Source: a virus (Duplodnaviria; Caudoviricetes). Taken from it: a stretch of 26,851 nucleotides of DNA. Below the pieces are notes generated by a model that was given only the letters and a program-made list of their open reading frames with translations, was not told the origin of the DNA and searched no databases. The stretch's first letter is position 1; every line of letters starts with the position of its first letter. Of this stretch, positions 3,640 to 18,859 are shown piece after piece. The DNA lies in the IMG/VR virus record IMGVR_UViG_3300011439_000040, positions 1 to 26,851 of that record; one strand, given 5' to 3'. Position numbers and translations under genes: made by a program.

Positions 3640-3752
3640 GGCTTACCTCCGTGTTTGGACTTGGCCTTGCACTTGTCACAGAAGGGCGGCTTCGCCGGGT
3701 CAGCGCTCGGCTCGCAGCGGTTGTAACAGTGGGCGTTAGAGCAGACGGTCAC
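3636..3752 (-). CDS. 38-aa Zn-finger mini-protein (not in ORF track)
   Basis: MTVCSNAHCYNRCEPSADPAKPPFCDKCKAKSKHGGKP; GTGA overlap at its start and ATGA overlap at its stop fill the gap exactly. Confidence 0.7.
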   Translation of the reverse strand: MTVCSNAHCYNRCEPSADPAKPPFCDKCKAKSKHGGKP

Positions 3753-4003
3753 GCCGCCACTTCGTACTGGAAGTGGTCATCGACCAGCAGCACCTCGCAC
3801 TGCATGTCGGCCTTCGACTTCCCGCTCCTGGTCGAGTACTGAGTGCGGTCGTACCAGCGAGCGCCAGCACCCCGCGCCTGGAGCGCCTCGACCAGACCCT
3901 CGTTGCGCGTCATCACCAGCACGACCGTGCGGTCACGCATGTAGGTGAGGAAGTCCACCTTCGGCGAGGACTGAAGCTGCGCGACGAACTCCTCCTTCGT
4001 CAT
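3749..4003 (-). CDS. Hypothetical protein (84 aa)
   Basis: TGATG coupling with the ssb-like gene. Confidence 0.7.
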   Translation of the reverse strand: MTKEEFVAQLQSSPKVDFLTYMRDRTVVLVMTRNEGLVEALQARGAGARWYDRTQYSTRSGKSKADMQCEVLLVDDHFQYEVAA

Positions 4004-4737
4004 CAGAACGGGATGTCGTCGTCACCGGGGGGCTGGCTGTAGCCGTAGTCGGCGGGGTTCTCGTACCCCTGTGCCTGCTGCTGCTGCGGCTGGGCCTCGG
4101 CAGCCTGGTGCTGCTGCTGTCCCTGCGGCTGCGGCGGCTGCACCGGGTTGACGTTCCACTGCACCCCGGAGTCGAAGTACTTGACGAGTTGCTCCGAGAT
4201 CGCAACCAGGGAGGCGAGGTTCTGCTGGTCGGGCTGCAGGTACTGCAGCAACTGGACCGACACCTTGGCTGCAGCCTGGCGGTGGATCTGCTTGGTGCGG
4301 AGATCCTCGGTCGGTTGCACTTGCGGAACCTGCTGCATGACAGGCTGCTGCTGCACGGGCTGCGGCTGGAACGACTGCGGCTGCATCACCGGGGTCGTCA
4401 CAGGCTGCGGCGACTGGATCGGCTGCGGCGGCATGAACTGCTGCGGCTGGATCTGGGTCGGCGCACCGACGAGATCCACCTGTCCGAAGGCGAGCGCCTC
4501 CAGGTAGCGGTTGGTGTACGGCTGCCCGTTGTGCGGGTTGATGTTCGTGGAGTCCTGCTCGTTGTAGCCAGCGGTCACGACCTGCCCCATCATCTGCTGG
4601 GCGAGGCCGATCAACTCCTGCCGCTTGGTCGAGAGCTTCGTCGGATGCTCCCTGCCCTGGGCGTGGATGGCGACGGCTACCCAGCCGCCATTGCGTTGCT
4701 CAAGACCAGTGATGGTCCCGATGATCTGCTGATCCAT
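4003..4737 (-). CDS. ssb: Single-stranded DNA-binding protein-like, with Q/P-rich linkers
   Basis: Beta-rich N-terminus, acidic C-terminal tip PGDDDIPF, near the exonuclease; ACACGGAGGA RBS. Confidence 0.7.
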   Translation of the reverse strand: MDQQIIGTITGLEQRNGGWVAVAIHAQGREHPTKLSTKRQELIGLAQQMMGQVVTAGYNEQDSTNINPHNGQPYTNRYLEALAFGQVDLVGAPTQIQPQQFMPPQPIQSPQPVTTPVMQPQSFQPQPVQQQPVMQQVPQVQPTEDLRTKQIHRQAAAKVSVQLLQYLQPDQQNLASLVAISEQLVKYFDSGVQWNVNPVQPPQPQGQQQHQAAEAQPQQQQAQGYENPADYGYSQPPGDDDIPF

Positions 4738-4738
4738 G

Positions 4739-5368
4739 TCACTCCTCCGTGTTGGTGGTGTCCGGCATTGTACCGAACAACTGTGCGGCTTGCACTGGCG
4801 CGGGTAGGCGTGGGCCTCCCGCGTACGTCCGGTTGAACCTGTTCAGGTACTCGCTCACGATTGCCACCTGTGCCTGGTTGCAGTCCGGGCACGGGGCGTA
4901 CACGTCGTGGCCGTGCCGCTCGGGGATGTACTTCGAGGGGTCGGTCAGCCACTCCGCTGGCGGCTTCGCCTTCGGCTTCTTCGCTGTCTCTGCCATCCAC
5001 GCCGTCAGTGTCGGCTGGCGGTAGCCAGCATGGACGACGCGCAGCCCATCGCACGTCGTGCAGTAGGCGCGGTCGTGGGTGACGTAGGTGGTCGGCGCGG
5101 TCTGCGCCTCCAGCATCCCGTCGAGGTTCGGCCAGTGCTTGGCGAGGGCGGTGGGCGTGAGCAGCGCACCGTCCATCACCTTACGGTACGTGTTGGCCTT
5201 GGCCTCGATGACGAGAGCAAGCTCTCCGTCGTCCAGGTCGGTCGTCGCCGAGCGGATGTCGGCGAGGGCCTTGTTCAGTGCGCCTCGGGCGGTCGGCGTC
5301 AGTGCGGTGATGTCGATCCCGCACACCTCGGCCAGCTTCTCGAAGCTGAGATCACGTTCACGGGCCAA
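4739..5368 (-). CDS. Hypothetical protein, possible replication initiator (helical domain + CxxC..CxxC)
   Basis: TPTALAKHWPNL, CTTC, CPDC; adjacent to ssb. Function inferred from position only. Confidence 0.55.
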   Translation of the reverse strand: MARERDLSFEKLAEVCGIDITALTPTARGALNKALADIRSATTDLDDGELALVIEAKANTYRKVMDGALLTPTALAKHWPNLDGMLEAQTAPTTYVTHDRAYCTTCDGLRVVHAGYRQPTLTAWMAETAKKPKAKPPAEWLTDPSKYIPERHGHDVYAPCPDCNQAQVAIVSEYLNRFNRTYAGGPRLPAPVQAAQLFGTMPDTTNTEE

Positions 5369-5561
5369 AGAGATCCCCCTGTCCTGTTGAGCCGCTGTAC
5401 TTGCGGCGGGTGTGGCACTGCTCGCACATCACGGTCCCGGTCAGAGTGCGGTCGAAGACCGTTCCCTTCCCGCCCTTCGACCAGCCGATGATCTCCCACC
5501 AGCCTTCGGCGTCACGCTCGATCACGTTGCCGCACTGCGCGTAGTTGACGCAGCGGGTCAT
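5358..5561 (-). CDS. Zn-finger protein (67 aa)
   Basis: MTRCVNYAQC...MCEQCH; ATGA overlap at the start. Confidence 0.7.
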   Translation of the reverse strand: MTRCVNYAQCGNVIERDAEGWWEIIGWSKGGKGTVFDRTLTGTVMCEQCHTRRKYSGSTGQGDLFGP

Positions 5562-5980
5562 CGGTGATCGTTCAGGCCGAAGCGGCCCTCCACCTGGATC
5601 GGCTGCTTCACCTTCAGCTTGATCGCGTCGAGCCTCTCCTCGGCGTACTCCTCGCCGAAGATGTGGACGAGCATCGACTCGTAGCGGGTGCCGTGGTTCT
5701 CCCAGCCGAGCAGCCACACCCCCTCACGCCCCTTCACGTCACCCGCTGCGAGCAGCGGCATCGTGGTCGGGTCGTACTCGTTGGCGAGGAAGAGGTAGAT
5801 CTCCGACGCTGCGCCGGGACCCCAGAGATCCTCATCGATCTGGAATCCCTCGATGGGCATGTCCTCCATCCGAGAGGTGAACCCCTCGGGAACGGCGTAG
5901 CTCGGGTTCACCTCGACGGGCAGGCCGACCGGGTACTCGCGCCGCATCCGCTTGTCACGCCAGGCGTCGATGTTGCTCAT
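5558..5980 (-). CDS. Hypothetical protein (140 aa)
   Basis: ATGA overlaps on both sides; typical codon usage. Confidence 0.75.
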   Translation of the reverse strand: MSNIDAWRDKRMRREYPVGLPVEVNPSYAVPEGFTSRMEDMPIEGFQIDEDLWGPGAASEIYLFLANEYDPTTMPLLAAGDVKGREGVWLLGWENHGTRYESMLVHIFGEEYAEERLDAIKLKVKQPIQVEGRFGLNDHR

Positions 5981-6990
5981 CGGTCCCAGTTCCAGACCCG
6001 CTGCTTCACGATCAGGTCAAGGTCCTCTGGACCCTTGACGTACTCACCGATGTACTTCTGCTTGTGCCGTCCCTCGCTCGGGTACCACTGGTTGCGCCAG
6101 TGGCCGGACACGATCCAGCGGTGGGTGTACTCACGCGCTGATCCGTTCTCGCTCTGCTCGTCGCCCTCCTTGGCGGAGCGGCGGCGGCGAAGCTCGATCA
6201 CCCGCAAGATCGAGGGCGGCAGCTTGAACCGCTGCGCCTCCCGCCGGGCGGCACGTCCTGCCTGGCGAGGGTCGGACTGCACGATCTTCTCGGCCATGAG
6301 TTTCTGCATGACTCTCCAAAAGAGGAGCCAGCTTGCGTTGCGGTCGCCCTCGCCTGAGATCTCGCGCTCGTCCGACATGTAGCGGAGCGGGATCGCCGTC
6401 GCATGCGCGATCCCCCACTGGAACGCGAACCGCTCCGGGTTGCGAAGCTCGGCGGTCAACTCCGGGTTCTCGTCGGTGAAGTCGTCGTCGTCCCAGACCC
6501 ACGACGCCTGCATGAAGCGGACGCCAGCCTCTGGCTCGCCCTCCATCGAGAGGTCGTAGGTGTAGCCGATGGGACCGGACTCGTCGTTGACGAACTTGAC
6601 CATCGGGTCGATGGTCTTCCAGTACAGGATCCGCCAGCCCACGCTCTTGCCGTTGATGTCCGCCGACAGGAACGGGTGAGGCAGGACGAGGAAACCGTCC
6701 TTCAGGAAGATGTCATCGAGCAGGATCGGCTCGGTCGGGTCGAACCCGTACATCGCCTTCTGGCACAGGTCCATCATCTCGGTCGTCATCCAGAGGATGT
6801 CGGTGTTGACCGCGTCGATGGCCGCGTGTTGGAACGCGACCCACGACGGCATCGCTGCCGTCTCTCCGTACTTGTTGTCCCGGTCGGTCAGCCAGGCATT
6901 CATCATCCCCTTGAAGTCGGGGTGGCGGACGAACTTCACGTAGTCCGTGTGCGCGTAGACCGCGTCGTCGTACGTCTCGAACTTCAGCAT
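5977..6990 (-). CDS. Conserved phage protein with C-terminal VxGHWR motif
   Basis: HRWIVSGHWRNQWYPS..YIGEYVKGP resembles a recurrent phage protein family of unknown function; ACACGGAGGA RBS. Confidence 0.8.
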   Translation of the reverse strand: MLKFETYDDAVYAHTDYVKFVRHPDFKGMMNAWLTDRDNKYGETAAMPSWVAFQHAAIDAVNTDILWMTTEMMDLCQKAMYGFDPTEPILLDDIFLKDGFLVLPHPFLSADINGKSVGWRILYWKTIDPMVKFVNDESGPIGYTYDLSMEGEPEAGVRFMQASWVWDDDDFTDENPELTAELRNPERFAFQWGIAHATAIPLRYMSDEREISGEGDRNASWLLFWRVMQKLMAEKIVQSDPRQAGRAARREAQRFKLPPSILRVIELRRRRSAKEGDEQSENGSAREYTHRWIVSGHWRNQWYPSEGRHKQKYIGEYVKGPEDLDLIVKQRVWNWDR

Positions 6991-7004
6991 TCCTTCCTCC
7001 GTGT

Positions 7005-7280
7005 TGTGGTCTTCGATCCATGATTCATGGATCGTGGATCGTGGTACGGGTGTCTTTCCCTGGTAAGGATCGGGGGCTAGAGGCTATAGCTCCAGCGTCC
7101 AAGGTCTAGAGGTGGTTCCCAGGCTCTTACTCGAATGATCCCCTCTTGCAGTCCGGGGCACTCGCGGTGACGCTTGCGCTCCGCTTGCCAGATCCCTTCC
7201 TGCTCACCCGCTCATCGGTGTCCTTGAGTTGCGGGATCCAACCGATCATCCAAACCTCGACTCGGCTCTCGCTGGAGATG
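7005..7280 (-). ncRNA. Candidate long structured 5' leader (leader C)
   Basis: Shares GGATGATC..GATCCCG (7232-7251) and TGGCAAGCGG (7181-7190) with elements A/B. Same operator abuts a candidate -10. 10-bp perfect inverted repeat at 7014-7034. Confidence 0.4.
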
Positions 7281-7284
7281 TCAG

Positions 7285-7314
7285 ATGGTGGCTGCCAGTT
7301 GCTCCTCCCGTCGA
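7285..7314 (-). promoter_or_regulatory. Candidate leftward promoter with operator GCAACTGGCAGC
   Basis: TCGACG-N18-CACCAT; the 12-mer at 7291-7302 is identical to 16229-16240 and has the same register against the -10. Confidence 0.45.
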
Positions 7315-7330
7315 GTAACGACGGGGCTTG

Positions 7331-7339
7331 TGGCATACT
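7331..7339 (+). promoter_or_regulatory. Candidate extended -10 (TGG-CATACT) for a rightward sRNA
   Basis: TGn-CATACT flanked by inverted repeats 7320-7326/7342-7348 and 7307-7313/7319-7325. Confidence 0.45.
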
Positions 7340-7345
7340 CACCCC

Positions 7346-7420
7346 GTCCTTGATCAGCGTCTCGGACATTAGCACGAAGGCCCAGTCTTCACCTCCGTGT
7401 GGCTGGGCCTTCGTCGTTCA
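7346..7420 (+). ncRNA. Candidate trans-acting antisense sRNA with anti-RBS loop
   Basis: Perfect 12-bp stem 7374-7385/7403-7414 plus 2 more pairs. The 13-nt loop UUCACCUCCGUGU is complementary to the ACACGGAGG(UG) RBS motif. Confidence 0.55.
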
Positions 7421-7807
7421 TCGCTTGAGTCGGAGCAGAGCTTCGCTCCCTCGCTTCGCTCCCGTCTCCTCGACCACGTCCACGAAGTCGGAGACTCGGC
7501 GACGGATCGACTCGACCCGCGCTCGCTCCGCCCTCCCGTCGGGACGCACCCGCCCGTAGATCACGATCTCCGCGATCTCGGCTCGGGTGAATCCCTCCGG
7601 GTGGTTCGGTTCATTCGCCTTGATGGCGTCGAAGACGAGCTTGCGGTCACCCTTCAGGTCCACCGTGAACGCGGCCTCATGGGAGGTGGCGGGGTCGGTC
7701 GGCCTGACGATCTTCGAGGGGTCGGGCCTGCGCCCGGATCCCATGCAGTACTGGCAGATGTCGCCTTCGCGCACACCTGTCCCGCCGCACTGGCCGCAAT
7801 CACCCAC
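7418..7807 (-). CDS. DnaJ-type Zn-finger repeats + probable winged-helix protein
   Basis: CGQCGGTG..CQYCMGSG, then RPTDPATSHEAA and FTRAEIAE..IRRRVSDF. Confidence 0.75.
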   Translation of the reverse strand: MGDCGQCGGTGVREGDICQYCMGSGRRPDPSKIVRPTDPATSHEAAFTVDLKGDRKLVFDAIKANEPNHPEGFTRAEIAEIVIYGRVRPDGRAERARVESIRRRVSDFVDVVEETGAKRGSEALLRLKR

Positions 7808-7994
7808 GATGCACCTCCCGTTCCGCCGCCCTCCGGGCGAGGTCGGTCCAGCCCCGCACCTCTCGGTGCCGAGCGTGGAACCTGATCACGTGCTGGATCA
7901 GGTCGTCGGGTGGGCGAGGGACATCCTTCCCCTCGGCCCACTCGATGACCCAGCGGCGGTCCTTACACGGTTGGCAAGGACAGTCGTCCGCCAT
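7800..7994 (-). CDS. Hypothetical protein (64 aa, CPCQPC)
   Basis: AGGAAGGGG SD; overlaps neighbours. Confidence 0.6.
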   Translation of the reverse strand: MADDCPCQPCKDRRWVIEWAEGKDVPRPPDDLIQHVIRFHARHREVRGWTDLARRAAEREVHRG

Positions 7995-8415
7995 CGATCA
8001 CCCCTTCCTGCTCCAGCCTGTCGGCCAGGGCGTAGATGTCCTCTTCGAGGTCGGCTGTCACTCTCGCAGCGCAGGTCGAGATCGAGCGCTGCCCGATCCC
8101 GTGCTTGCCTGCGTAGCGGTAGGCCAGCATGGCCTCCAGCCCTGCGTACTGGTTGATCCGACGGTCGTCGGTTGGCAGGTACGAGGGAGCCGCCATCGCC
8201 ACCAGCACCGCGAAGGGATCCGTATCGAGGCAGTCCTCTTCGAGGAGACAGATGGGCGAGCGGACGGGTATCCCCCGTACCAAGCCGGGGTACAACTGAG
8301 CGCAGTAGCGCGGGACCTTCGTCCACCCCTTCACCTGGAGCCGACGCACTGTCAGTCCCAGGTGGAGGGCGACGGAGGCGTGGGTAGCCTCATGGATCGC
8401 GGTCGGGCTAGGCAC
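7963..8415 (-). CDS. HEXXH metallopeptidase, M41(FtsH)-like stand-alone domain
   Basis: TAIHEATHASVALHLG resembles FtsH TAYHEAGHA; C-terminal IYALADRLEQEGVIDG also resembles M41. Start approximate. Confidence 0.6.
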   Translation of the reverse strand: MPSPTAIHEATHASVALHLGLTVRRLQVKGWTKVPRYCAQLYPGLVRGIPVRSPICLLEEDCLDTDPFAVLVAMAAPSYLPTDDRRINQYAGLEAMLAYRYAGKHGIGQRSISTCAARVTADLEEDIYALADRLEQEGVIDGGRLSLPTV

Positions 8416-8596
8416 CAAGCCTCTGGCTGAGGTCGTGAAGCTGGACGTGCTTCGTCCTGATCTTCGAGCGGACGCTCGCCGACAGCGTCGAGTCCTGCGA
8501 ATCCTTCTTCGCCGACTCGCCTGCCTGGACGACCGCCTCGCGTACGAGGTCGAACTCGACCGGGTTGAGCTTGATCGTGACCGTAGCTTCGGCCAT
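8408..8596 (-). CDS. Hypothetical protein (62 aa, MAEATVTIKL...)
   Basis: ACACGGAGGT RBS at 8606-8615. Confidence 0.75.
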   Translation of the reverse strand: MAEATVTIKLNPVEFDLVREAVVQAGESAKKDSQDSTLSASVRSKIRTKHVQLHDLSQRLGA

Positions 8597-8637
8597 AGAT
8601 CTGACACCTCCGTGTCGTTGATGGTGCAGAACCAGCA

Positions 8638-8668
8638 GCACCTGGCGAGGGGAGCAAGCTCCCCCACC
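8638..8668 (-). repeat. Intergenic hairpin element GGTG-GGGGAGCTTGCTCCCC-TCGCC (copy 1)
   Basis: Near-identical to 10744-10777. Confidence 0.8.
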
Positions 8669-8670
8669 AG

Positions 8671-8817
8671 CTACTTCCGCTTCTTCGCTCGCGCCCGGCA
8701 TGCCTCCATGCCGATGCAGTAGCGGTTGCCCGTGAACCGGGAGTACACGTACTGGCCCTCCCGCACCCTCTTACCGCAGAGGGCGCAGGAGTAGCCAGCC
8801 TTCGGCTTGGCAGCCAC
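8671..8817 (-). CDS. 48-aa basic Zn-finger mini-protein (not in ORF track)
   Basis: MAAKPKAGYSCALCGKRVREGQYVYSRFTGNRYCIGMEACRARAKKRK; starts 1 nt after the upstream stop. Confidence 0.7.
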   Translation of the reverse strand: MAAKPKAGYSCALCGKRVREGQYVYSRFTGNRYCIGMEACRARAKKRK

Positions 8818-8818
8818 G

Positions 8819-9925
8819 CTACTTCACCGCCAGAGCGACCTTCTCCCACGACTTCTCGGGCATCTGAGCGAGGGACCAACCGAGGCCCTCGATCTCCGCC
8901 TGACGGTCGAAGGACTCGACCGTCTTCGCGGCTGCCGTGAAGGCGTTGAGCATGCCCCACTGACCCTTGCCGATCCCGTTGGGATCCGCAGCGAGGGAGA
9001 GCATGACCGCCTCTTCCTCGGCCTCGGAGAGGCTGAACTCCTTCGCCAGCACCTTCGTCGCAGCCACCGGGCTGACGACCTCGATGCCGGACAGGCCCTG
9101 AAGCTGGTCCACGACCGTGTTGAACGCGGCCTCGGAACAGGTGTGACGGAGCGTGTCCCGAGCGGCGAGCCAGAAGGCGACATCGTCCGCCGCCAGGGCC
9201 TCGTTCGAGAGGACTCCCTCGTCCTCGCGCTTGCCAACGTGGCGAGCGTTGAGGGCCTTCGTCGTCGTCATCCCGTTGGTGCAGATGAGGACGAGCATGA
9301 ACCCGGAGATGGTCAGGGAACCTGCCCCGATCTCGGAGTTCTTGATCTCGACGCCCCACCGGACGGTGTCGCCGACCGACTTCACGTCCCGCTCCAGAGC
9401 GGGGAACAGTGCCCGGATGTACAGGCGCTGCTCGGTGACGGCAGCCTGGTGGAACTGCACCTCGGTGCCGAGGTTGTCGAACTCGGGGAGCAGGGTCCGG
9501 GCGATCTCGATGTGATCGAGACGGCGGAAGCGGTCGGACATCCAGCCGCGTCCCGTCATGTTCCCGGTCGGGTTCGTGTAGCCCCGGATCATGCGAGCCT
9601 TCGGCTCGTTCATCATCCAGTGCCGCACGTTCTCCTCGAAGAGGCCAGGTGCATCGACCTTCATCCGGTCGAAGTACCGCTTCGGGATCCCCAGATCAGT
9701 GCTGATCTGGCCCTGCATGTGATCCGTGAGGTTGAAGTAGCGAAGCTCGTCGCCCGGCGTGTCGAGCGCAAGCTCGACTTCCTTGGTGACCGAGCCGTCG
9801 TTCCTCGGGACATCCACGACCGAGACGCCCATCGAGCGGGTGTCTGCGATCACGTCGTACTTGCGGCGGTCTTCCGCCACGATCCTCGACATCAGCGCGT
9901 CGAGGCTCTCGACTGTGCGAGTCAT
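8819..9925 (-). CDS. DUF932-like protein
   Basis: VGDTVRWGVEIKNSEIGAGSL..LICTNGM..RHVG and QWGMLNAFTA are characteristic of this family; ACACGGAGGT RBS. Confidence 0.75.
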   Translation of the reverse strand: MTRTVESLDALMSRIVAEDRRKYDVIADTRSMGVSVVDVPRNDGSVTKEVELALDTPGDELRYFNLTDHMQGQISTDLGIPKRYFDRMKVDAPGLFEENVRHWMMNEPKARMIRGYTNPTGNMTGRGWMSDRFRRLDHIEIARTLLPEFDNLGTEVQFHQAAVTEQRLYIRALFPALERDVKSVGDTVRWGVEIKNSEIGAGSLTISGFMLVLICTNGMTTTKALNARHVGKREDEGVLSNEALAADDVAFWLAARDTLRHTCSEAAFNTVVDQLQGLSGIEVVSPVAATKVLAKEFSLSEAEEEAVMLSLAADPNGIGKGQWGMLNAFTAAAKTVESFDRQAEIEGLGWSLAQMPEKSWEKVALAVK

Positions 9926-10182
9926 GCTGGTGTTACCTCCGTGTTCGTCGTGCGTTGGACGGCTCTCTGAGCCGCTGGTGTCTGAAGAATGGCGAGCTTG
10001 TCCCAGAAGGCGTAGCCTCGCTCCAGCTTCAGGATCGGCTCGGGCAGCGAACCCCGAGCCACTGCGTCGAAGACGCTCTGCGGGTTCCGGTAGCCCATCA
10101 CCTCGGCTACCTGGAACGAGTCGAGCAGGCGGTCCTTGACCGCCTCCGCAAACTTGGTCGTACTGATTGGCCTTGGGGCCAT
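9922..10182 (-). CDS. AlpA/excisionase-like HTH regulator
   Basis: LLDSFQVAEVMGYRNPQSVFDAVARGSLPEPI..FW; AAGGAG SD. Confidence 0.75.
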   Translation of the reverse strand: MAPRPISTTKFAEAVKDRLLDSFQVAEVMGYRNPQSVFDAVARGSLPEPILKLERGYAFWDKLAILQTPAAQRAVQRTTNTEVTPA

Positions 10183-10231
10183 ACTCCTTCCCTTCGTCGT
10201 CGGGTCAGTGCTGAACATCCGCACTGGGCAA

Positions 10232-10271: not shown

Positions 10272-10700
10272 CTAGGCCGGGACCTCGGTCTTCGACCGTT
10301 CGACATGCCTTCGGAACTCGACGGCGCTGTCATCCAGTTTGCGAGTCACGTGCCGCTTCAAGAAGCTGGTGCGCGACTCGTCCTTGAACGATGCGTTCGT
10401 GGACAGGCCGATGTGAGCGATCACGTCTTCCTTCGTGATCGGCATGTCGCCGTCCTGGTTGCGGAGCGAAGCTCCGTAGAGGTCCTCGACCAGTGCGATC
10501 CTGGCCCAGACCTCGGCGGCGTTGTCCTCCGTGATGCGCCCGATACCCGTGTTGAGCGAGTGCCAGATCAGCGCGGTCGTGACGGGGTTCCAGAGCTTGT
10601 CGCCCTTCTTCGTCCCGTCCGAAGGCCAGTCCTGCGTGGCGATCACAGTCGTGACCGTCTCGTAGTCCTTCACATCCTTCACTGACCAAGTCAGTGCCAT
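10272..10700 (-). CDS. Hypothetical phage protein (142 aa)
   Basis: ACACGGAGGT RBS in hairpin CATCAC-ACGGAG-GTGATG. Confidence 0.8.
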   Translation of the reverse strand: MALTWSVKDVKDYETVTTVIATQDWPSDGTKKGDKLWNPVTTALIWHSLNTGIGRITEDNAAEVWARIALVEDLYGASLRNQDGDMPITKEDVIAHIGLSTNASFKDESRTSFLKRHVTRKLDDSAVEFRRHVERSKTEVPA

Positions 10701-10743
10701 GCGTCATCACCTCCGTGTGATGTTGGGTGATGCGAGACGTACC

Positions 10744-10789: not shown

Positions 10790-11335
10790 CTAGTTGTCCT
10801 CGTCCTCCGGGTCCGGGTTGGCCGGGGCAGCAGCGAGGTTCACAAGACCCTCGATCCGCTGCGACTGCTCTTCGAGCCGCGCCTCCAGGCTGGAGACACG
10901 GGACCCGAGGGTGTCCACGGCGTCGAGAACGACGATGGCGGCGCGAGCGATCTCGCCCCACTCCTCGTCCTCCCGCTTCGTCCCGGCGAACTCCCCGAGC
11001 GTGATGAGAGCCTCGCTGAAAGACGGAAGCTCCGTCTCGACCTGCTCGACCGAGTAGCTCACGTCCTCGAAGACCCAGGTGAAGCTGTTCTGGTCCTCGA
11101 CCTCGTTGCCATCGGAGATGGCCTCGCGAGCCTTCTCCTCCGCCTCGTCCTCGTCGTCCGCCTCGATGACGAGGAGGACCTCGCCTCCAGAGGAGGAGAT
11201 CTCCTCGGACGACCAGTACGAGTCGTCGCTCTCGACGGTCACGCCGTCCACGTCGTTGATCTCGCGCTCGATGTTGCCATCGAACTCGATGGACGTGCCG
11301 AGTGAGAACGTGACGTTCACGTTGTACTTGGGCAT
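10790..11335 (-). CDS. Highly acidic protein, candidate DNA mimic
   Basis: About 48 D/E vs about 10 K/R in 181 aa (manual count); RBS in hairpin GACAC-ACGGAG-GTGTC. Confidence 0.75.
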   Translation of the reverse strand: MPKYNVNVTFSLGTSIEFDGNIEREINDVDGVTVESDDSYWSSEEISSSGGEVLLVIEADDEDEAEEKAREAISDGNEVEDQNSFTWVFEDVSYSVEQVETELPSFSEALITLGEFAGTKREDEEWGEIARAAIVVLDAVDTLGSRVSSLEARLEEQSQRIEGLVNLAAAPANPDPEDEDN

Positions 11336-11354
11336 GTAGCTGACACCTCCGTGT

Positions 11355-11686
11355 GTCGTCGTACGGAACCGTTATCGGCACCGTGGGCGAGGTCCGTTCG
11401 GAGCGGACCCCACCGATGGTGTCGCATAGGTTGAGTGGTTGGCAGCGTCCGGGCTTCCCCCGGCGGCTTCGTCACGACGTTGCCTCTCGCACCCCCTGCC
11501 TCTCCGCCTAGTTCGCTGGCCTACGCTGCCCCATGGCTCGGAGGAGGTGCGGTCGGCGATGCTGACCGTGACTCACTCGCTGCTGCAGACTCAAGGCTCG
11601 GGATCAGGCTGCTGGGATCATCCAGGGCCGGAACCGCTTGCCTCCTCCGCCGGAACCCCGTTCAATCGGGCCGACTTCGGTGCTGC
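11355..11686 (-). ncRNA. Large structured RNA / 5' leader, copy A
   Basis: Collinear 12-17 nt identical blocks shared with 15818-16216, compensatory changes, no credible ORF, upstream promoter. Confidence 0.75.
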
Positions 11687-11692
11687 CCCACC

Positions 11693-11762
11693 AATGTAGC
11701 TGCCATCTGGCCGTCGTCAAGCAGTCCGAACAGACTCCGAACAGGCCAGCAGCAAGCTGCTG
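11693..11762 (-). promoter_or_regulatory. Promoter A: TTGACG-N16-TACATT, operator CCAGATGGCAGC, upstream 11-bp-period direct repeat and hairpin
   Basis: TCCGAACAG at 11725-11733 and 11736-11744; hairpin at 11747-11762; same layout as promoter B. Confidence 0.7.
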
Positions 11763-11795: not shown

Positions 11796-12119
11796 TCAGA
11801 CGCTCGCGTCGTGATCCGTGTGGACGTACACCTTGTCCGTGGCGCGGAGCATCAGGTCGAAGACCTGGCCCTTCTCGCCTCGAAGCTCGACCAGAATCCG
11901 CTTGCCGAAGCTCTCCTCGAAGAGGACGACGAAGCGCTCCCCACGACGATGGATGACATCCCCCCGCCGAAGGCGGTAGGCCGACTTGAAACCGCTCCAC
12001 CCGTCCATCGAGCATGGATCGCAGATCCATGACATCTCGTCCGGGTCGAGCATGTAGACCTCGCATCCGCAGATGCCGCAGGTCGAGAGGACTCCGTCCT
12101 CCACGTGCCCTTCGTGCAT
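11796..12119 (-). CDS. Zn-ribbon + beta-rich protein (107 aa)
   Basis: MHEGH..CGICGC..CDPC; ACACGGAGGT RBS at 12124-12133. Confidence 0.75.
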   Translation of the reverse strand: MHEGHVEDGVLSTCGICGCEVYMLDPDEMSWICDPCSMDGWSGFKSAYRLRRGDVIHRRGERFVVLFEESFGKRILVELRGEKGQVFDLMLRATDKVYVHTDHDASV

Positions 12120-12169
12120 GTGTACCTCCGTGTTTGTGGGACGACGGCGGGGCCTCGAAGGCCCCACCG

Positions 12170-12864: not shown

Positions 12865-12879
12865 CTCACACCTCCGTGT

Positions 12880-12940
12880 GATCCTCCGTTCCACCGGAAC
12901 GGAACGGCAGAGCCTCGAAGGCTCCACCGACCCCATCCGC
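12880..12940 (-). repeat. Two-hairpin intergenic cassette R1
   Basis: GCGGA..TCGGTG[hairpin]TGCCGT[CCGTTCC-GGT-GGAACGG]..ACACGGAGG. Confidence 0.85.
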
Positions 12941-13251
12941 TAGAGATCTACGATCTCGAAGTCAGCACCCTGCCGGGTCCTGAACGCCTTGATCGGCTTC
13001 AGCGCTGCCTTGTAGGCAGCGGGAGTGGCACGGTCGAGGTTCTCGCGAGCCTCCCACGTACCGTCGCCCTCGATCAACTCCTGCAGCTTCGCTGCAGCCC
13101 GGCAAGGCTTCGGCCAGTAGGCCCAGCCGTCCGAGTTTCGATTCGTCCACCGCTCCAGGTTCTGGAGCGTCTCCGTGGCGGGACCGAGGACCGGGTGAGC
13201 CGCGAAGCGGCTTCGTGCCTCCTCGATGTCCCAGGTGTTCATGAAGCGCAT
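12940..13251 (-). CDS. Hypothetical phage protein (MRFMNTWDIE..NSDGWAYWPKP)
   Basis: ACACGGAGGT RBS at 13257-13266. Confidence 0.8.
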   Translation of the reverse strand: MRFMNTWDIEEARSRFAAHPVLGPATETLQNLERWTNRNSDGWAYWPKPCRAAAKLQELIEGDGTWEARENLDRATPAAYKAALKPIKAFRTRQGADFEIVDL

Positions 13252-13266
13252 GCTGTACCTCCGTGT

Positions 13267-13324
13267 CATCCATTCCACCGGAATGGAACGGCAGCGGCTC
13301 GAAGCCGCCACCGACCCTGTCCGC
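13267..13324 (-). repeat. Two-hairpin intergenic cassette R2
   Basis: Same layout as R1 with compensatory changes (CCATTCC/GGAATGG; GCGGC/GCCGC). Confidence 0.85.
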
Positions 13325-13710
13325 TAGATCTCCTCTTCGAGGACCCCGGCCCACTGAAGAAGCTCGACATCCCCGTTGGGGATGAACATCGCCAGGCCCT
13401 GAAGCTCGGCGATCTCTCCGTAGGAGATGCTCTCGGCCTGGATCACGGAGCGAAGCTCCTCCAGCCGCTCGGGGATCGTCCCATCCCCTTCGGGGATGAT
13501 GATCTCCTTGCAGGCCATCAGGCCGCTTGCCAGCCGAGGGATGACGTAGTCATCCAGGGTCCAGCCAGCGTTGTCCTCGCCTCGAATCAGGACGACGAGT
13601 CGTCCTGTGCCGCCGTCGGGGAACCGATGTCCGTAGACCTCGTACCCGCTCGGCAAGTAGGCGGCGACTTCGTCGCTGCGCCTTGCTCCGCTCACTGCTG
13701 CATACCTCAT
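13324..13710 (-). CDS. Hypothetical phage protein (GEDNAGWTLDDYVIPRLASG)
   Basis: ACACGGAGGT RBS at 13716-13725. Confidence 0.8.
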   Translation of the reverse strand: MRYAAVSGARRSDEVAAYLPSGYEVYGHRFPDGGTGRLVVLIRGEDNAGWTLDDYVIPRLASGLMACKEIIIPEGDGTIPERLEELRSVIQAESISYGEIAELQGLAMFIPNGDVELLQWAGVLEEEI

Positions 13711-13725
13711 GTCCTACCTCCGTGT

Positions 13726-13783
13726 CCACCGTTCCACCGGAACGGCACGGCAGGGTCCAGAGGACCCCACCGAACCCATCCGC
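13726..13783 (-). repeat. Two-hairpin intergenic cassette R3
   Basis: Same layout; first hairpin GGGTCC-TCT-GGACCC. Confidence 0.85.
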
Positions 13784-13792
13784 CGGGTCGTT

Positions 13793-14566
13793 CTATCGAA
13801 CGAAGCCGCTCGTCCGATCCTGCCGGGCCTTGCCCTTAGCCTTCAGCCCGACGATGACCCCAGAGGGGTCAAGGAACCGAAGGTCTGACTTGTCACCGTC
13901 GAAGACGGGACGCCCCATGTACTCGCTCGGGACGCTGTGGAACACAGCGGCGACGTTGATCCCGTTCGCCAGGGCTACCGATGCCTTGGCATCGTTGTTC
14001 TCGGCGAGGGAGAACGTCAGCGAGTAGTTCGGGATGTCAGAGACATCCCGGTCGGGGTGCTTCGTGTAGTCGTAGAAGACCACATCGGGGTGACGCTCGA
14101 AGAGCGTCTGGCCCTCCAGCTTGATCGACTCCCAGCGAAGATCGCTGGTGCCGTTGAGCCGCACGGCAGGCTGAAAGCCTTTCCGCGCCGCTCTCCGCTT
14201 GTGGGTGGCGATCTCGGCGTCCAGCACCTGGAGGAACTCGTTCCTCCGAGCGAAGTACCACGCCGTCCTGAGACGGCGTTTCCTCTGGATCGCGTTGTCG
14301 GCTTCGCCCTTGGCGAAGATCCCGCCACGCCCTGCAGTGTTGAGACAGGCTGCTTCGCAGCCTGCCGTGGCGTTGCTGCAGACCTGAAAGCCAGAGGCTT
14401 TCGCCGGGGCCAGGTGCATGATGGCTGTAAGCCATCCGTCCTTCTCGCCCTTCTCGACCTTCTGATTCGTGGTCAACAGACCACGGATGGCACCGCCGAA
14501 GACCTCTTCGAGGTCGTACTCGACTCCACCAGCCGTCGCCAACCGCTGAAAGCGGTCAATGTCCAT
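13793..14566 (-). CDS. GP88-like protein (3-Cys, radical-SAM-like fold suspected)
   Basis: CSNATAGCEAACLNTAGRG, VRLNGTSD, FYDYTK, DGDKSDLRFLD, VGLKAKG. Start placed by spacing from the RBS at 14577-14585. Confidence 0.75.
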   Translation of the reverse strand: MDIDRFQRLATAGGVEYDLEEVFGGAIRGLLTTNQKVEKGEKDGWLTAIMHLAPAKASGFQVCSNATAGCEAACLNTAGRGGIFAKGEADNAIQRKRRLRTAWYFARRNEFLQVLDAEIATHKRRAARKGFQPAVRLNGTSDLRWESIKLEGQTLFERHPDVVFYDYTKHPDRDVSDIPNYSLTFSLAENNDAKASVALANGINVAAVFHSVPSEYMGRPVFDGDKSDLRFLDPSGVIVGLKAKGKARQDRTSGFVR

Positions 14567-14608
14567 ACGCACCATCCCTCCGTGTACACCGCTCCACTTG
14601 GAGCGGAA

Positions 14609-14662
14609 GGCCAGTCCGGGGAATCGAACCCCGGCTCCCAGAGGGAGCCTGCCAAGGCTGGC
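14609..14662 (-). ncRNA. tRNA-like element (acceptor + T arm, no D stem, no CCA)
   Basis: GCCAGCC/GACTGGC acceptor (one C-A mismatch), CGGGG-TTCGATT-CCCCG T arm, middle stem GCTCCC-TCT-GGGAGC. Confidence 0.55.
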
Positions 14663-14668
14663 TGACGA

Positions 14669-14758
14669 TCACCGCTTCGCGGCGGTGACCATGGCAACTC
14701 CGACGTTGCCGAGATTGCTCTTCTGAGCAATCAGGTTGAGCAACTGCACACGGGTCAT
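14669..14758 (-). CDS. 29-aa peptide MTRVQLLNLIAQKSNLGNVGVAMVTAAKR (not in ORF track)
   Basis: Own ACACGGAGGAAGGAGG RBS (14764-14779) preceded by a UUCG hairpin. Confidence 0.7.
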   Translation of the reverse strand: MTRVQLLNLIAQKSNLGNVGVAMVTAAKR

Positions 14759-14795
14759 CTGACCCTCCTTCCTCCGTGTCGTGACCCCGAAGGGG

Positions 14796-15281
14796 TCAGC
14801 CGTACAGCTTCGAGATCACTTCGGGATCGAAGATCCCGAGGCCCTTCCCGAACACGCCGACGCTCTTGCACATCTCAACCAGGGACTGGTTGAGGCCCTG
14901 CTTGGGGAACTGCGATTGCGGCAGCCGAATCCTGACGGCAGAGCCGTCATCGAGCATGCCGAAGCAGTAGCTCAGGTCCCACATCGGGAAGTCCCGATCC
15001 GTCACAAGGCGAAGCCTTGTGATCCGCTTGATCCGCTTGTCGCCGAGGTTGACAACCTCGGAGGCTCGCATCTGGAGGAGCTTCTGCTCCTCGGTGATCG
15101 TGTTGACCTCGACAGCACCGTAGGTGCTGGTCACCGTGCCGCCACCGACGTAGTCGGTGTACTCGGCTTCGACCCGAGCGTACTCCGAAGCGACTTCGTC
15201 GCTTGTCACCTTCTCGGCGGCGACTACGTCGTCCCACATCTCCCGCTCTGCATCCTGCAGAGCATCGCTCCAGCTAGGCAT
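14796..15281 (-). CDS. Hypothetical phage protein (161 aa, WDLSYCFG)
   Basis: ACACGGAGGT RBS at 15286-15295. Confidence 0.8.
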   Translation of the reverse strand: MPSWSDALQDAEREMWDDVVAAEKVTSDEVASEYARVEAEYTDYVGGGTVTSTYGAVEVNTITEEQKLLQMRASEVVNLGDKRIKRITRLRLVTDRDFPMWDLSYCFGMLDDGSAVRIRLPQSQFPKQGLNQSLVEMCKSVGVFGKGLGIFDPEVISKLYG

Positions 15282-15352
15282 ACGTACCTCCGTGTCAATC
15301 CCTTCACCGAAGGGATTCGGCCAGGCCGCGCTGTGTCGGCCAGACCGAATCA

Positions 15353-15592
15353 CTACTGTGATTCGCCGAGCAGAATCGCCCGGCAGGAAGTGCAGTCCAC
15401 CCTTTCAGGGTGGCCGTAGCCCGTCGCCGAGCCGATGCCCCAGAAGCTCTCACCGCAAGCGGTGAGGAACGTGCGCTTGTCCTCGCGGTGTGCGAGGTGG
15501 GTGCCGATCACATCTTCGATGTGAAAGGAGGCCAGGGGCACCTCGGCGTGGACCGAACCGTCCCGCCAGGGCCTCAGAATGAGGCCATGCAC
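15353..15592 (-). CDS. Zn-binding hypothetical protein (H..TACG..VDCTSC)
   Basis: TAGTG coupling with the upstream gene. Confidence 0.65.
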   Translation of the reverse strand: MHGLILRPWRDGSVHAEVPLASFHIEDVIGTHLAHREDKRTFLTACGESFWGIGSATGYGHPERVDCTSCRAILLGESQ

Positions 15593-15801
15593 TAGACCCT
15601 CACTCCCTTCGGGAGTGTCCGCTTCCAGGCCCGAAGGGCCTTCGCAGCGTCCTTCTGCATCTGCCGGGTCGCCATGGCGACCTGATCCGAGACGCCGACG
15701 ACCTTCGGTCGTGGGGTGCCATTGAACTGACCCCTCATCTCGACCCGGAACTTCCCCTCCTGACCGCCTACGGCGGTCCCGAGCTTCGCTGCCTTTGCCA
15801 T
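15592..15801 (-). CDS. Basic hypothetical protein (69 aa), first gene after RNA copy B
   Basis: ACACGGAGGAGG RBS at 15806-15817. Confidence 0.75.
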   Translation of the reverse strand: MAKAAKLGTAVGGQEGKFRVEMRGQFNGTPRPKVVGVSDQVAMATRQMQKDAAKALRAWKRTLPKGVRV

Positions 15802-15817
15802 GCTGCCTCCTCCGTGT

Positions 15818-16216
15818 GGTGACCTACCAGTGCCTTCGGCACCGTGGGCGTCACCGCGTCAGAGGAGACGACGGCTGGCAGAAAGCCAAGGCCGAAGCTC
15901 CTACTGCGCGGTAACACCGATGGTGTCGCATGCTGTAGTGAGTGTTTGTGTCAGCGTCCGTCCTCTCGACGGCGGCTCGACGCGGCATTGCCTTCGGCAC
16001 CCCCAGAATCTCCGCCTAGTTCGGCAGGGCCTGACTGACTTCGTCAGGTTGCTTTCCCCATGGCTCGGTGGGGGAGACGAACGCAGAACTGAGCGCATCT
16101 CCCTCGCTGATCAGGATCACATTGAGGCTCGGGATCGGCCTTCGGGGATCATCCCTCGGCGGAACCGCTTGCCACCTAACCGCTACCCCGTCGGAACCGG
16201 GACGGCTCGGCGAACC
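15818..16216 (-). ncRNA. Large structured RNA / 5' leader, copy B
   Basis: Homologous to 11355-11686 with hairpin expansions and covariation. Confidence 0.75.
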
Positions 16217-16222
16217 GATGCC

Positions 16223-16292
16223 AACCTAGCTGCCAGTTGCCAGACTGTCCAGCGATCCGAACAGAACCCAAACAGGCCGGAGCAAAGCTCCG
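16223..16292 (-). promoter_or_regulatory. Promoter B: TGGACA-N17-TAGGTT, operator GCAACTGGCAGC, upstream direct repeat and hairpin
   Basis: TCCGAACAG at 16256-16264 and CCCAAACAG at 16267-16275; hairpin at 16278-16292. Confidence 0.7.
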
Positions 16293-16365
16293 AAGGCGCG
16301 TGAAGCAAAGCTGGTGCGCGTAGCGAAAGCGCATACCTAAGCGGTTCCGGGTGTACACTGGAGCT

Positions 16366-17124
16366 ATGCGATCAGGTGACCCGAGCCTTCCGCCGAGTGG
16401 CGCACCGGGCCTTTCAGGCCCCGCGCACGACTCACATGAGGATCTCCTCCTCACTGCCGACGGAGCCTCGGGTGACGCACAGGGCGAAGCCCTGACGCAG
16501 GCGGAAAGAGCTACGGATCTCCTCACCGAAGGTGGGCTGCCAGTGGTGTCCCAGCCTCCCTTGCTCCTCTTGGCGGGGGGAGCGGAGGAGAGCGAAGCTC
16601 CGCACGACCCTGTGCGAGAGGTGGACCGACGGAACGGCAACGCTGCCAGAGCCAGGAAACAGGCTCTGAAAGAGCCTGGGGTCGTTGAGGATGGCGAGGG
16701 GAACATCCTGCTCAAGGCTAAGAGCCTTGTGATCCCTGAGGAGAAGCGATGCCAAGCCTTGACGGTCCACGGTCGGCGCTGCCGCTCAGGGAAGATGCGC
16801 GGGATGGAGGTCTGCGTCTTCCACGCACACCGGGCGCTGACCGACGAGGCCCTTGCCACCCTTGCGGACCCCGAGGTGAAACCTCGTCTAACCCCCAGGA
16901 AGGCACTGCAGGCTGTGGTAGCCCTACGGGCTGGGGAGCTTGCCGAGGCGGCGGTTGGCGGCGCTCTCTCCGCTGATGGAATCAGCGCCACCCGCGCTGT
17001 GATCAGCCTGATCGACTCTGTCGATCCCCTGGTCCAGTCGGAGGAGACGCTGACCCTCTCTAGAGAGGGTGCTGAGACGGCGTCCTACCGCCAACTCAGG
17101 GCCTTGTTCAGCCCTTCGGGCTGA
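16366..17124 (+). CDS. HGGxSTG-like Zn-knuckle protein, candidate terminase small subunit
   Basis: RCQALTVHGRRCRSGKMRGMEVCVFH followed by a helical region; TACACT at 16354-16359 suggests a leaderless start. The TerS call is inference. Confidence 0.55.
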   Translation: MRSGDPSLPPSGAPGLSGPAHDSHEDLLLTADGASGDAQGEALTQAERATDLLTEGGLPVVSQPPLLLLAGGAEESEAPHDPVREVDRRNGNAARARKQALKEPGVVEDGEGNILLKAKSLVIPEEKRCQALTVHGRRCRSGKMRGMEVCVFHAHRALTDEALATLADPEVKPRLTPRKALQAVVALRAGELAEAAVGGALSADGISATRAVISLIDSVDPLVQSEETLTLSREGAETASYRQLRALFSPSG

Positions 17125-17455
17125 GTACCAGCCCTACCCTCCCTCCCCACCACTACGTGGTGCCAAGGGAGACAACAAGGAAGGGTCGCATGCCCAGCAC
17201 TAGCCCTTGGCTAGTACTGGGCACGTGCGTGTGCCTGCCCCTAGCTCCTAGCTAGGGGCAGGGGGGCCTTCCCCCGGTCGGGCATGCATGCGCGGGTCCT
17301 GTCTCGGGGGTGTCGTCCCCGCACCAGCCCCTCACAGCGCGATTCAGCCCGATTCGGGGCCTCCTGCGGGTCCTCTGCCCCGGATTCCGGCCCTGAGGGG
17401 CCTCTCTGCGCCCCTGAGAGTGGATTTAAGCGCTATTTGCGGTTAAATCGGGGGT
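17125..17455. other. Non-coding palindrome cluster, candidate packaging site / genome terminus / origin
   Basis: Inverted repeats at 17191-17223 (15 bp, 1 mismatch), 17234-17262 (13 bp perfect) and 17423-17449; clustered CTAG. Confidence 0.45.
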
Positions 17456-17653
17456 CTAGTCCCGATATCGCGGTCTTTCCAGGTTCACCAGCGTCCAGGT
17501 CGGGTATCTGCGGCAGCCTGGGCGCTCACAGCGGTTGTAGGTGGCGATGTAGCGGACGCCTCGCACCGTCTTCGGTCGATCCATCGCATCCCAGCGGTGA
17601 AGGCCGAGGAAGCACCACGTGGACTGCGGCGGCTTGACTGTTCGTCTGGTCAT
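17456..17653 (-). CDS. Small Zn-binding protein (CFLGLHRW..RC..C, DUF1660-like)
   Basis: Motif only; start uncertain. Confidence 0.55.
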   Translation of the reverse strand: MTRRTVKPPQSTWCFLGLHRWDAMDRPKTVRGVRYIATYNRCERPGCRRYPTWTLVNLERPRYRD

Positions 17654-17693
17654 CGGGGTAGGCTCATCATCACCTACGAGACGGAGGCTAGCC

Positions 17694-17786
17694 ATGACGT
17701 TCGGGACGCAGGACATCTGCTTGCTGATCATCGCCGCTGCTCTGGTGCTGATCTTCCTCTTCGGCATCGACGTGGTCGGCGGCTAG
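17694..17786 (+). CDS. 30-aa single-TM peptide (not in ORF track)
   Basis: MTFGTQDICLLIIAAALVLIFLFGIDVVGG; ACGGAGG SD and TAGGCT -10 at 17659-17664. Confidence 0.7.
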   Translation: MTFGTQDICLLIIAAALVLIFLFGIDVVGG

Positions 17787-17902
17787 GTTCACGCAGTCCC
17801 AGGCTCCGCAAGGGTCTGTGTCGATCCCGTGCCTGCAGACGCAGATTGCGGGGTCCTCCCGAACGACGGATCCCGACCCGTCGTCACTCCTCCTGTCCCC
17901 GC

Positions 17903-18394
17903 TCACGGGGTGAACTCCCCTTCCGGCCCCCGTCCCACTAGCGATCTCAGCCAGTGCCTGTACCTCTCCTCGTTGAGGTGCCACCAGCCCCGGCTGTCTG
18001 TCAGGTTGAAGACCCAGAGGTCGCTCATGTCCCACCTGAACAGGACGACCCAGGCTTTGCAGCCCAGCCGTCGCGCCACCGTCACCGCTGTCTCTCCCTG
18101 CACGTCGCGCTGGAACCGCGTCAGCACGTTGGCGCGGTAGCTGTCGGGGACAGGGATGTTGCCATCGACGCGGGTTAGCTCAAGCACGGCCACGGGCAGC
18201 CAGACGCCCTGGTGCAGACGCCACTCGATGTTGTCCACGTCGGTGACTCCCCCGATCCCCTGCACGTACCTCCAGCTTCGGTAGGGAGCGACCCGGTCTA
18301 CCTGCGAGGAGAGGGTCTTGGCCGAGTTCCGCTCCGCCCAGTCGTCCGGGCAGCGGCCACAGGTCGGGCACTGCTCGATCACCCCGTCGTCCAC
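17903..18394 (-). CDS. Possible PD-(D/E)xK-fold protein with N-terminal CPTC
   Basis: TDVDNIEW..VAVLELTR..Q..VARRLG pattern. Start may be 18382. Confidence 0.55.
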   Translation of the reverse strand: MDDGVIEQCPTCGRCPDDWAERNSAKTLSSQVDRVAPYRSWRYVQGIGGVTDVDNIEWRLHQGVWLPVAVLELTRVDGNIPVPDSYRANVLTRFQRDVQGETAVTVARRLGCKAWVVLFRWDMSDLWVFNLTDSRGWWHLNEERYRHWLRSLVGRGPEGEFTP

Positions 18395-18813
18395 GCTTCT
18401 CTCTCATCGCGCACCTCCCAGACCTGGAAGACGTGGTCTTGCTCTTCCAGGTTGACGTAGAACTCGGGCTGCGGCAGGAGAATGCCGACACAGATGTCCA
18501 AGGGCAGCAGGCGGTAGCGAGCGACCTTGATCTCGTCCCAGGTCGGGTGTCGCGAGGGAGTGGAGATCGTCAGGTGCCAGAGCAACTCTCGGTTCCTGCC
18601 AGCAGGCTCCTGGCCGACGAAGATGTCGCACACGCCCATCCGGTAGATCGTCAGGTCGTCGGGCTTCAAGCCGTTCGCGATCAGCGCGTTCGCCACGTGC
18701 GGCGGCATCCGCTGCTCGATGATCGGCTGCTCCTTGAAGCCGTAGCTGACGGTGCCGGGGATCCCCTCGATCTCCTTCACCGCGCTCTTCCGCTTCACCG
18801 CTCCTCTGCTCAT
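18379..18813 (-). CDS. Conserved phage protein (WHLxIS..PTWDE..YVN family, DUF7694-like)
   Basis: WHLTISTPSRHPTWDEIKVARY..LLP..YVN; ACACGGAGGA RBS at 18817-18826. Family name from recall. Confidence 0.75.
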   Translation of the reverse strand: MSRGAVKRKSAVKEIEGIPGTVSYGFKEQPIIEQRMPPHVANALIANGLKPDDLTIYRMGVCDIFVGQEPAGRNRELLWHLTISTPSRHPTWDEIKVARYRLLPLDICVGILLPQPEFYVNLEEQDHVFQVWEVRDEREAWTTG

Positions 18814-18859
18814 CGCTCCTCCGTGTTTTGGTGTGCCAAACAGTTGTATGCTACTCGGC

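Follow-up and report, generated by a model that had tools for sequence, protein, structure and literature searches.

Why should a phage place the same few bases, beyond the reach of the ribosome, ahead of so many of its genes, and what reads them there? The question is raised by a 26.9-kb (26,851-nt) fragment of an uncultured tailed phage, IMG/VR record IMGVR_UViG_3300011439_000040, positions 1 to 26,851, whose whole length we call the window. In it a nine-letter sequence, ACACGGAGG, hereafter the tag, joins ACAC to the GGAGG core of a Shine-Dalgarno (SD) site and recurs before leftward genes. The answer that we favour, with a probability of roughly one half, is that a phage-encoded antisense RNA of ~75 nt represses the tagged early genes together.

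Place and conservation of the tag

Exact k-mer counting in the window gave 17 copies of the tag on the minus strand and 0 on the plus strand, with a chance expectation of 0.34 and a maximum of 3 among 100 dinucleotide shuffles. The positions and single orientation given in the original prediction, which had been made from the letters alone, were exact in every case. As it also held, 16 of the 17 copies lie 4-12 nt ahead of a minus-strand start (ATG in all 16), so that 16 of the 35 called leftward genes are tagged and none of the 17 called rightward ones, and most genes so marked stand apart from their neighbours: 14 of the 16 lie at least 37 nt from the next called upstream gene (13 if an uncalled 38-aa open reading frame (ORF) at 3636-3752 is real), and 12 of the 16 are more than 50 bp from their upstream neighbour in our gene calls. 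Two near-tags were also seen, one with a single mismatch at 17679-17687 (+), ahead of a rightward 30-aa ORF, and one with a single insertion at 23625-23650 (-), ahead of leftward gene 22996-23625, which pairs at -18.8 kcal/mol with the loop described in the next section.

The leftward arm, running from 18.8 kb to 0.7 kb, holds small uncharacterised genes, a GP88 gene, a PD-(D/E)XK nuclease and LexA- and LuxR-type DNA-binding genes, and it is on this gene content that we call it early. The rightward arm, from ~18.9 kb, holds an Acb2/Tad1 gene, a VRR-NUC nuclease, an M23 lysin, the terminase and an SU10-type portal. Using the 368-aa gene 8819-9925 (phrog_1362) as the anchor for fetching relatives, we found 15 and 16 tags in the complete relatives G001 and G002, all on the early strand (15 vs 0 and 16 vs 0) and none in the structural arm, and 8 copies in G005. 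The proposal that the tag is a shared address of an early regulon therefore stands as far as the address is concerned, being confined to the early arm with no tags in the structural genes of two complete relatives; the reader proposed with it, CsrA, is not supported.

Across 18 loci of the clade, 152 exact tags have variable flanks from -12 to -1, and the base that follows is T in 79%. Among 126 intergenic starts led by GGAGG (12 clade loci), 96 carry ACAC, 13 differ from the tag at the first base only and 17 are of other kinds, some of these being the second GGAGG of a tagged site. In all 13 one-mismatch tags the change is confined to the terminal first base; the true core of the tag is CACGGAGG.

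Our reference set for the ribosome was a candidate host family of 41 actinobacterial genomes, which are incomplete and whose tallies include the unpublished G026 and G034; the pointer to it as a possible host is a single 53% homologue in one Actinomycetota metagenome-assembled genome (MAG). The 16S tail of this family ends canonically, CCTCCTTTCT, in 13 of 14 full-length copies, and ACAC is therefore left without a ribosomal pairing partner, as had been argued from the letters. We rejected an odd host 16S tail as the explanation, since none of the 14 ends in GUGU and the late genes use ordinary SD sites. We likewise rejected the tag as a generic ribosome-binding site (RBS) of the host, an alternative that the original prediction had itself raised for host and late genes alike: tag-plus-ATG occurs at 0-6 sites per genome of 1.4-5.2 Mb, a range unchanged when G026 and G034 are left out.

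Sister clades carry tags of their own, CACCCACGAAGGAG in G003 and G004, ACACGAAAGGAG in G047 and G048, CCGACAG(A/G)(A/G)AGG in G049 and G050, CCCAACGAAAGG in G051 and TCAACCCGAAGGAGG in L073. Each is an AC-rich extension on an SD site, almost wholly on one strand, in which inner variants are tolerated, and several lack the CsrA core CANGGA. This bears on the idea that the tag is a binding site for host CsrA/RsmE, which would either repress the early messages or be titrated by them. In its favour, the primary consensus as first proposed fits 16 of the 17 copies, and the ACGGAG hexaloops predicted at 10710 and 11346 do form, with closing-pair probabilities of 0.96-0.97. However, in the other 15 copies this probability is 0.04 or less, so that the hexaloop is present in 2 of 17; the T that follows the tag also extends SD pairing; in orthologues of the 10710 copy the first letter is often T and the fold a tetraloop; and the consensus is not kept in the sister clades. 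CsrA itself was found in 0 of the 41 candidate-host genomes (3 of 14 in a control; the genomes are incomplete and linked to the phage by the one MAG homologue) and in 0 of 5 phage records. We consider CsrA a very improbable reader.

The startless copy and a candidate antisense RNA

The remaining copy, at 7392, had been listed but left unexplained, and with it the best candidate for a reader of the address was missed. It has no start codon in range, and it forms the loop of a conserved hairpin, P2 (Table 1), in each of the 8 loci (7 distinct) that extend this far. Its use as the RBS of ORF 7127-7375 was rejected, the distance being at least 17 nt and the frame not conserved. The loop, TTCACCTCCGTGT, is invariant in 13 of 13 columns across 7 of 7 orthologues, compared with 11 of 60 among the other ungapped columns, and its 3' edge coincides with the 5' edge of tag conservation. 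By contrast with the loop, the stem arms have only 2-8 of 12 letters in common between orthologues: all 12 outer pairs change on both sides while 99% of cells stay paired, a result reached by 0 of 500 shuffles in a test that ignores relatedness among orthologues that are not independent. Controls with slid alignments gave 33-46% pairing. Beyond these loci, a viral pattern scan returned two known relatives and 7 unrelated matches without the hairpin, a covariance model run over 816,555 bases matched strongly only the 7 training loci and a near-duplicate, and the candidate RNA had no match in Rfam.

Read on the plus strand, the loop UUCACCUCCGUGU consists of eight letters of the 16S tail followed by GUGU. 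Because GUGU is the complement of ACAC, the loop provides an explanation for the conserved extension, and the hairpin has what is expected of C-rich-loop small RNAs (sRNAs), a conserved stem presenting a C-rich loop complementary to SD sites. Pairing is energetically possible: opening the loop costs ~3 kcal/mol, and the loop-target duplex has a median of -18.2 kcal/mol over 42 tagged starts and -9.5 over 151 untagged ones, a difference that arises partly by construction. The advantage of the loop over the 16S tail, again partly by construction, is -7.3 kcal/mol at tagged starts as against +0.8 at 55 untagged starts with strong SD sites.

Ahead of P2 lie a first hairpin, P1, and a candidate extended -10 box. 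Within this region GGCATACT is invariant in 7 of 7 orthologues, TG precedes the hexamer in 6 of 7, and P1 starts at the predicted +1 in 6 of 7 and two bases after it in L001. The -10 box and the +1 base were assigned by general promoter rules. A leftward extended -10, TGCTAATGT, is also conserved at 7366-7374, with the pattern TGnTAnnnT kept in 7 of 7, and the site therefore looks like two convergent promoters. In the leader of the leftward one, 7000-7358 (-), alternative 1:2 and 2:3 pairings surround an SD site and a mini-ORF of 4-5 codons, followed by a conserved non-coding block that is also present in G004. Because the candidate RNA overlaps the first 13 nt of this leader, it may also act in cis.

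Which strand is transcribed can be approached through the pairs themselves. In all 7 orthologues the unit of P1 and P2 gives a better fold than its complement does, with 24 G-U pairs against 7, and the cells of P2 hold 9 G-U against 1 A-C. As a control we took leaders of tagged genes, which prefer the early strand in 48 of 74 cases with 95 G-U against 20 A-C. A strand-neutral count of 6 G-U against 3 A-C in the element, set beside the control's 95 to 20 the other way, gives p 0.003 for orthologues that are not independent. We regard the support for the antisense strand as moderate.

The mechanism that we propose begins with the rightward promoter (box 7331-7339, +1 at 7346), which would make an RNA from the strand opposite to the tagged genes. 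Its loop would mimic the 16S tail (AUCACCUCC) with an end of GUGU in place of UUUC, so that it should favour ACAC-tagged sites over ordinary SD sites and outcompete the 30S subunit there. By pairing with the tagged sites the loop would probably block translation of all tagged genes jointly, ending early expression and sparing late and host messages. As to when, we can only guess at an early-to-late switch or a dormant state. We hold more tentatively the fuller picture that a private RBS extension across a regulon is matched by an sRNA loop that is a retuned mimic of the 16S tail, the two forming a protein-free master switch of early translation.

Several observations weigh against an antisense reader. 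Six untagged starts pair with the loop as well as the weakest tagged one does, and no clade member was found in which tag and loop had changed in concert. The one-mismatch tags include no wobble variants (C to U, A to G), although these should be tolerated by pairing. A full 13-bp helix within such a loop is sterically unlikely unless the stem opens. A strict scan of 7000-7700 returned neither a sigma-70 promoter nor a terminator. Other control regions also contain GCATAC, so the box at 7331-7339 may be an operator. Taken by itself, P2 favours the antisense strand in no more than 5 of 7 orthologues, and the strand-neutral excess is small. No matching hairpin was found with the covariance model and three scans in G003, G004 and G047-G051, despite their own homogeneous tags; a startless tag copy in a hairpin loop was seen in one further case only, L056, whose tag is a generic SD sequence. 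Of seven cluster K mycobacteriophages, a group to which we return below, that were checked for a comparable loop, three retain it, one has a diverged version and three lack it at the corresponding position; it shows no strand preference.

Another possibility is that the tag acts at the DNA level, as an operator or stoperator-like site bound by a phage repressor, for which the LexA-type protein encoded at 711-935 and the 38-aa protein encoded at 18860-18976 are examples. The single orientation, the restriction to the early arm, the presence of DNA-binding genes and the overlap of the startless copy with a promoter-like box would suit such a site. Against it, the distance to ATG is fixed at 4-12 nt with a full GGAGG core, the startless copy sits in a covarying stem, which is an RNA signature, and its spacing from the leftward -10 varies from 19 to 22 nt. 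This makes a DNA site exceedingly improbable.

Possible protein readers and cassette spread

The absence of wobble variants at inner tag positions would fit a phage protein that reads the tag on mRNA, as a RegB-like nuclease or a RegA-like repressor, with the startless hairpin serving as a high-affinity or processing site on the early strand. In T4, RegB cleaves GGAG in early SD sites and RegA represses ~30 mRNAs, according to the available text of PMC3014915; the tag likewise places GGAG in intergenic early SD sites. The hairpin folds well on the early strand too. A candidate is at hand in a 134-aa Arg-rich protein whose gene follows the tag clade exactly, all 4 tag-clade relatives carrying it and none of 7 others, and in which R111, R114, R117, R124 and Y126 are invariant. 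However, several other genes are likewise clade-restricted, and the element tends to favour the antisense strand. Searches of 5 records gave no match to the RegB or RegA families, a weak negative as the controls were silent too, and the 134-aa protein had no sequence or fold match in PDB (model mean predicted local distance difference test, pLDDT, 77) and only Atlas matches below 0.8, no wide profile or fold search having been run. On balance we judge a protein reader unlikely. The 134-aa gene and a leaderless 38-aa gene, whose product we take to be ribbon-helix-helix-like although it has no family match, occupy 18860-19377 (+), back to back with tagged gene 18379-18813.

The sister clades raise a different possibility, that there is no regulator at all and that a strong, unstructured, AC-rich RBS has spread by recombination of cassette modules, the hairpin at 7371-7417 being a two-way terminator that captured one copy. 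In the window, 76-nt two-hairpin modules that end in the tag (12865-13783) separate single small genes, whose order differs among the window, G001, G002 and G005, suggesting repeat-mediated cassette shuffling. Because sister clades have homogeneous tags without a visible antisense hairpin, cassette homogenisation stays alive: each has homogenised its own AC-rich extension plus SD site, startless relic tags are found in other clades, and P2 abuts a stop codon at 7418-7420. Against this, most tagged sites have unrelated flanks, variable from -12 to -1 around a fixed core; there is no need for a terminator to keep 13 loop nucleotides unchanged when each pair of its stem has been replaced; and the sister-clade tags tolerate inner variants, whereas the tag of the window clade does not. 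We hold a spread without a regulator to be decidedly unlikely, and retain the antisense RNA as our preferred reading.

Several arrangements in the relatives are of interest in their own right. G004 (L031:7900-14400) and G003 (L029:7700-12700) carry a strict array of stop, G-rich hairpin, TCCAGGC, second hairpin, CACCCACGAAGGAG and start, a unit repeated ~15 times in G004. In L063:573, L068:5689, L070:1308, L071:6126 and L072:5317 the start codon of a tagged gene is locked in a small hairpin directly after the SD site. In L056:6530-6565 a startless AGAAAGGAGAAGA occupies the loop of a 9-bp hairpin beside a terminator-like stem, on a contig that shares only the 368-aa gene with the window.

Table 1. 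Positions of the tags and associated features in the window
Feature	Position	Strand	Remarks
Tag	3646..3654	-	Ahead of 71-aa gene 3424-3639
Tag	4744..4752	-	Ahead of 244-aa gene 4003-4737, acidic C-terminal tail; presumably SSB-like
Tag	6996..7004	-	Ahead of 337-aa gene 5977-6990 (phrog_15934)
Candidate extended -10 box TG-G-CATACT	7331..7339	+	6 nt before predicted +1 G
Candidate antisense small RNA, ~75 nt (P1, linker, P2)	7346..7420	+	Both ends predicted
P1 hairpin	7346..7367	+	Loop UCAGCG in 6/7; begins at predicted +1 base
Candidate extended -10, convergent leftward promoter	7366..7374	-	Start ~7358; for replication-side genes
P2 hairpin	7371..7417	+	12-17 bp stem, presents the loop; fold z -6.2 in the window
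Invariant loop	7388..7400	+	Complement of tag plus TGAA; starts with YUNR-type UUCA
Tag	8607..8615	-	Ahead of 62-aa gene 8408-8596
Tag	9936..9944	-	Ahead of 368-aa gene 8819-9925 (phrog_1362)
Tag	10710..10718	-	Ahead of 142-aa gene 10272-10700; within 6-bp hairpin
Tag	11346..11354	-	Ahead of 181-aa gene 10790-11335; closes second long leader
Tag	12125..12133	-	Ahead of 107-aa gene 11796-12119
Three 76-nt two-hairpin intergenic repeats	12865-12940, 13249-13324, 13708-13783	-	Each ends in a tag (12871, 13258, 13717)
Tag	14577..14585	-	Ahead of GP88-family gene 13793-14566
Tag	14771..14779	-	Ahead of 29-aa gene 14669-14758
Tag	15287..15295	-	Ahead of 161-aa gene 14796-15281
Tag	15809..15817	-	Ahead of 69-aa gene 15592-15801; closes first long leader
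Tag	18818..18826	-	Ahead of DUF7694 gene 18379-18813
134-aa Arg-rich protein	18973..19377	+	Candidate protein reader (rival) or RNA helper

The long leaders of Table 1, 15830-16290 and 11360-11760 (-), are paralogous non-coding stretches of ~450 nt, and a promoter-like box with tandem repeats of the TGTTCGG type precedes each. Their structured blocks are kept in most relatives and have no Rfam match, and they may represent a structured RNA not yet described. A tRNA-like mini element at 14610-14662 (-) directly precedes the tag at 14577, with a weak mascRNA match (34.7 bits, cut-off 42.5) and a similar stretch in G001; it is a possible RNase P/Z processing signal. Rfam gave 0 matches at gathering score and two sub-threshold matches in the window, and a tRNA search of the window returned none. 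In the rightward arm, the Acb2/Tad1 hairpin-domain protein at 19742-20020 (+) matches PF24729 (E 3e-12) and is likely an anti-CBASS/Thoeris signal sponge.

The window is 55% complete, with 65% G+C, and belongs to an uncultured family of SU10 type. The phage collection held no cultured relative, megablast of 2-20 kb gave no match, and the best terminase matches are ~27%. The terminase had no match in GTDB genomes and the lysin homologues carried no host names; most of the lysin's nearest Atlas cluster is assigned to Actinomycetota, the phylum being on record for just 2 of its members.

Known systems and significance

The repeated intergenic hairpin-plus-SD modules that stand between shuffled small early genes in T4-type phages, the mobile PeSL regulatory cassettes, recall the modules described here, but no promoter is seen in each module of the window and the tag is also found outside the module. 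The closest likeness is to cluster K mycobacteriophages, and from its sequence and placement we class the tag as a new start-associated sequence (SAS), of the same kind as theirs although not of the same family. The cluster K SAS and extended SAS (ESAS) have been described since 2011 (PMC3203893), and their role is given as not known in the available parts of PMC11373665 and PMC12699233. As far as the accessible text of PMC3203893 describes it, the cluster K SAS shares with our tag an asymmetric repeat in a single orientation, confined to the non-structural arm and placed a few nucleotides before mostly ATG starts, chiefly of genes that stand more than 50 bp from the upstream neighbour; it occurs in 11-19 copies, and, as here, conserved bases unable to pair with 16S accompany an SD core. 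The 13-mer itself differs in sequence, and the SU10-type family here is unrelated. The upstream elements here are RNA hairpins with G-U pairs and not, as in the ESAS described there, 17-bp inverted repeats, for which no dedicated search was made.

Pope et al. mention, in the portion available, one reversed SAS copy without a start in cluster K. In Anaya (JF704106, 59850-59920; L169) this single reversed SAS falls within the 10-nt loop of a hairpin on the transcribed strand, and the loop is kept in BarrelRoll and LilPharaoh. The odd copy in the window, by contrast with the reversed one reported there, has the same orientation as the other tags, so that a separate antisense transcript is needed. 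No antisense RNA is proposed in the available portions of PMC3203893, PMC12699233 and PMC11373665.

Gram-positive sRNAs are known to have C-rich loops by which SD sites are occluded and YUNR loops through which pairing is accelerated, as the accessible text of PMC4152353 recounts; RNAIII, RsaE and FsrA use a C-rich hairpin loop to pair with SD sites in several mRNAs (PMC4152353), as we propose here. The candidate RNA differs from these in being phage-encoded, in being aimed at the phage's own genes and in meeting a private 4-nt extension on every target. The RegB and RegA system of T4 has in common with the tag a signal in early translation-start regions that allows a joint early shut-off (PMC3014915, in part); its readers are proteins.

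Searches of the open-licence PMC and bioRxiv literature gave no relevant report of an antisense RNA that a phage directs against a shared RBS tag. Should the antisense reading prove wrong, the tag would still be a new SAS with a clade-restricted protein candidate. The candidate reader is now specific, an invariant loop of 13 nt on a fully covarying hairpin that would account for the bases with which the ribosome cannot pair. If the reading is true, this is a multi-target antisense switch that a phage has turned on its own regulon, the SAS of cluster K mycobacteriophages, which have lacked an explanation since 2011, would be accounted for along the same lines, and the pair of tag and loop would offer a natural template for orthogonal translational control in actinobacteria.

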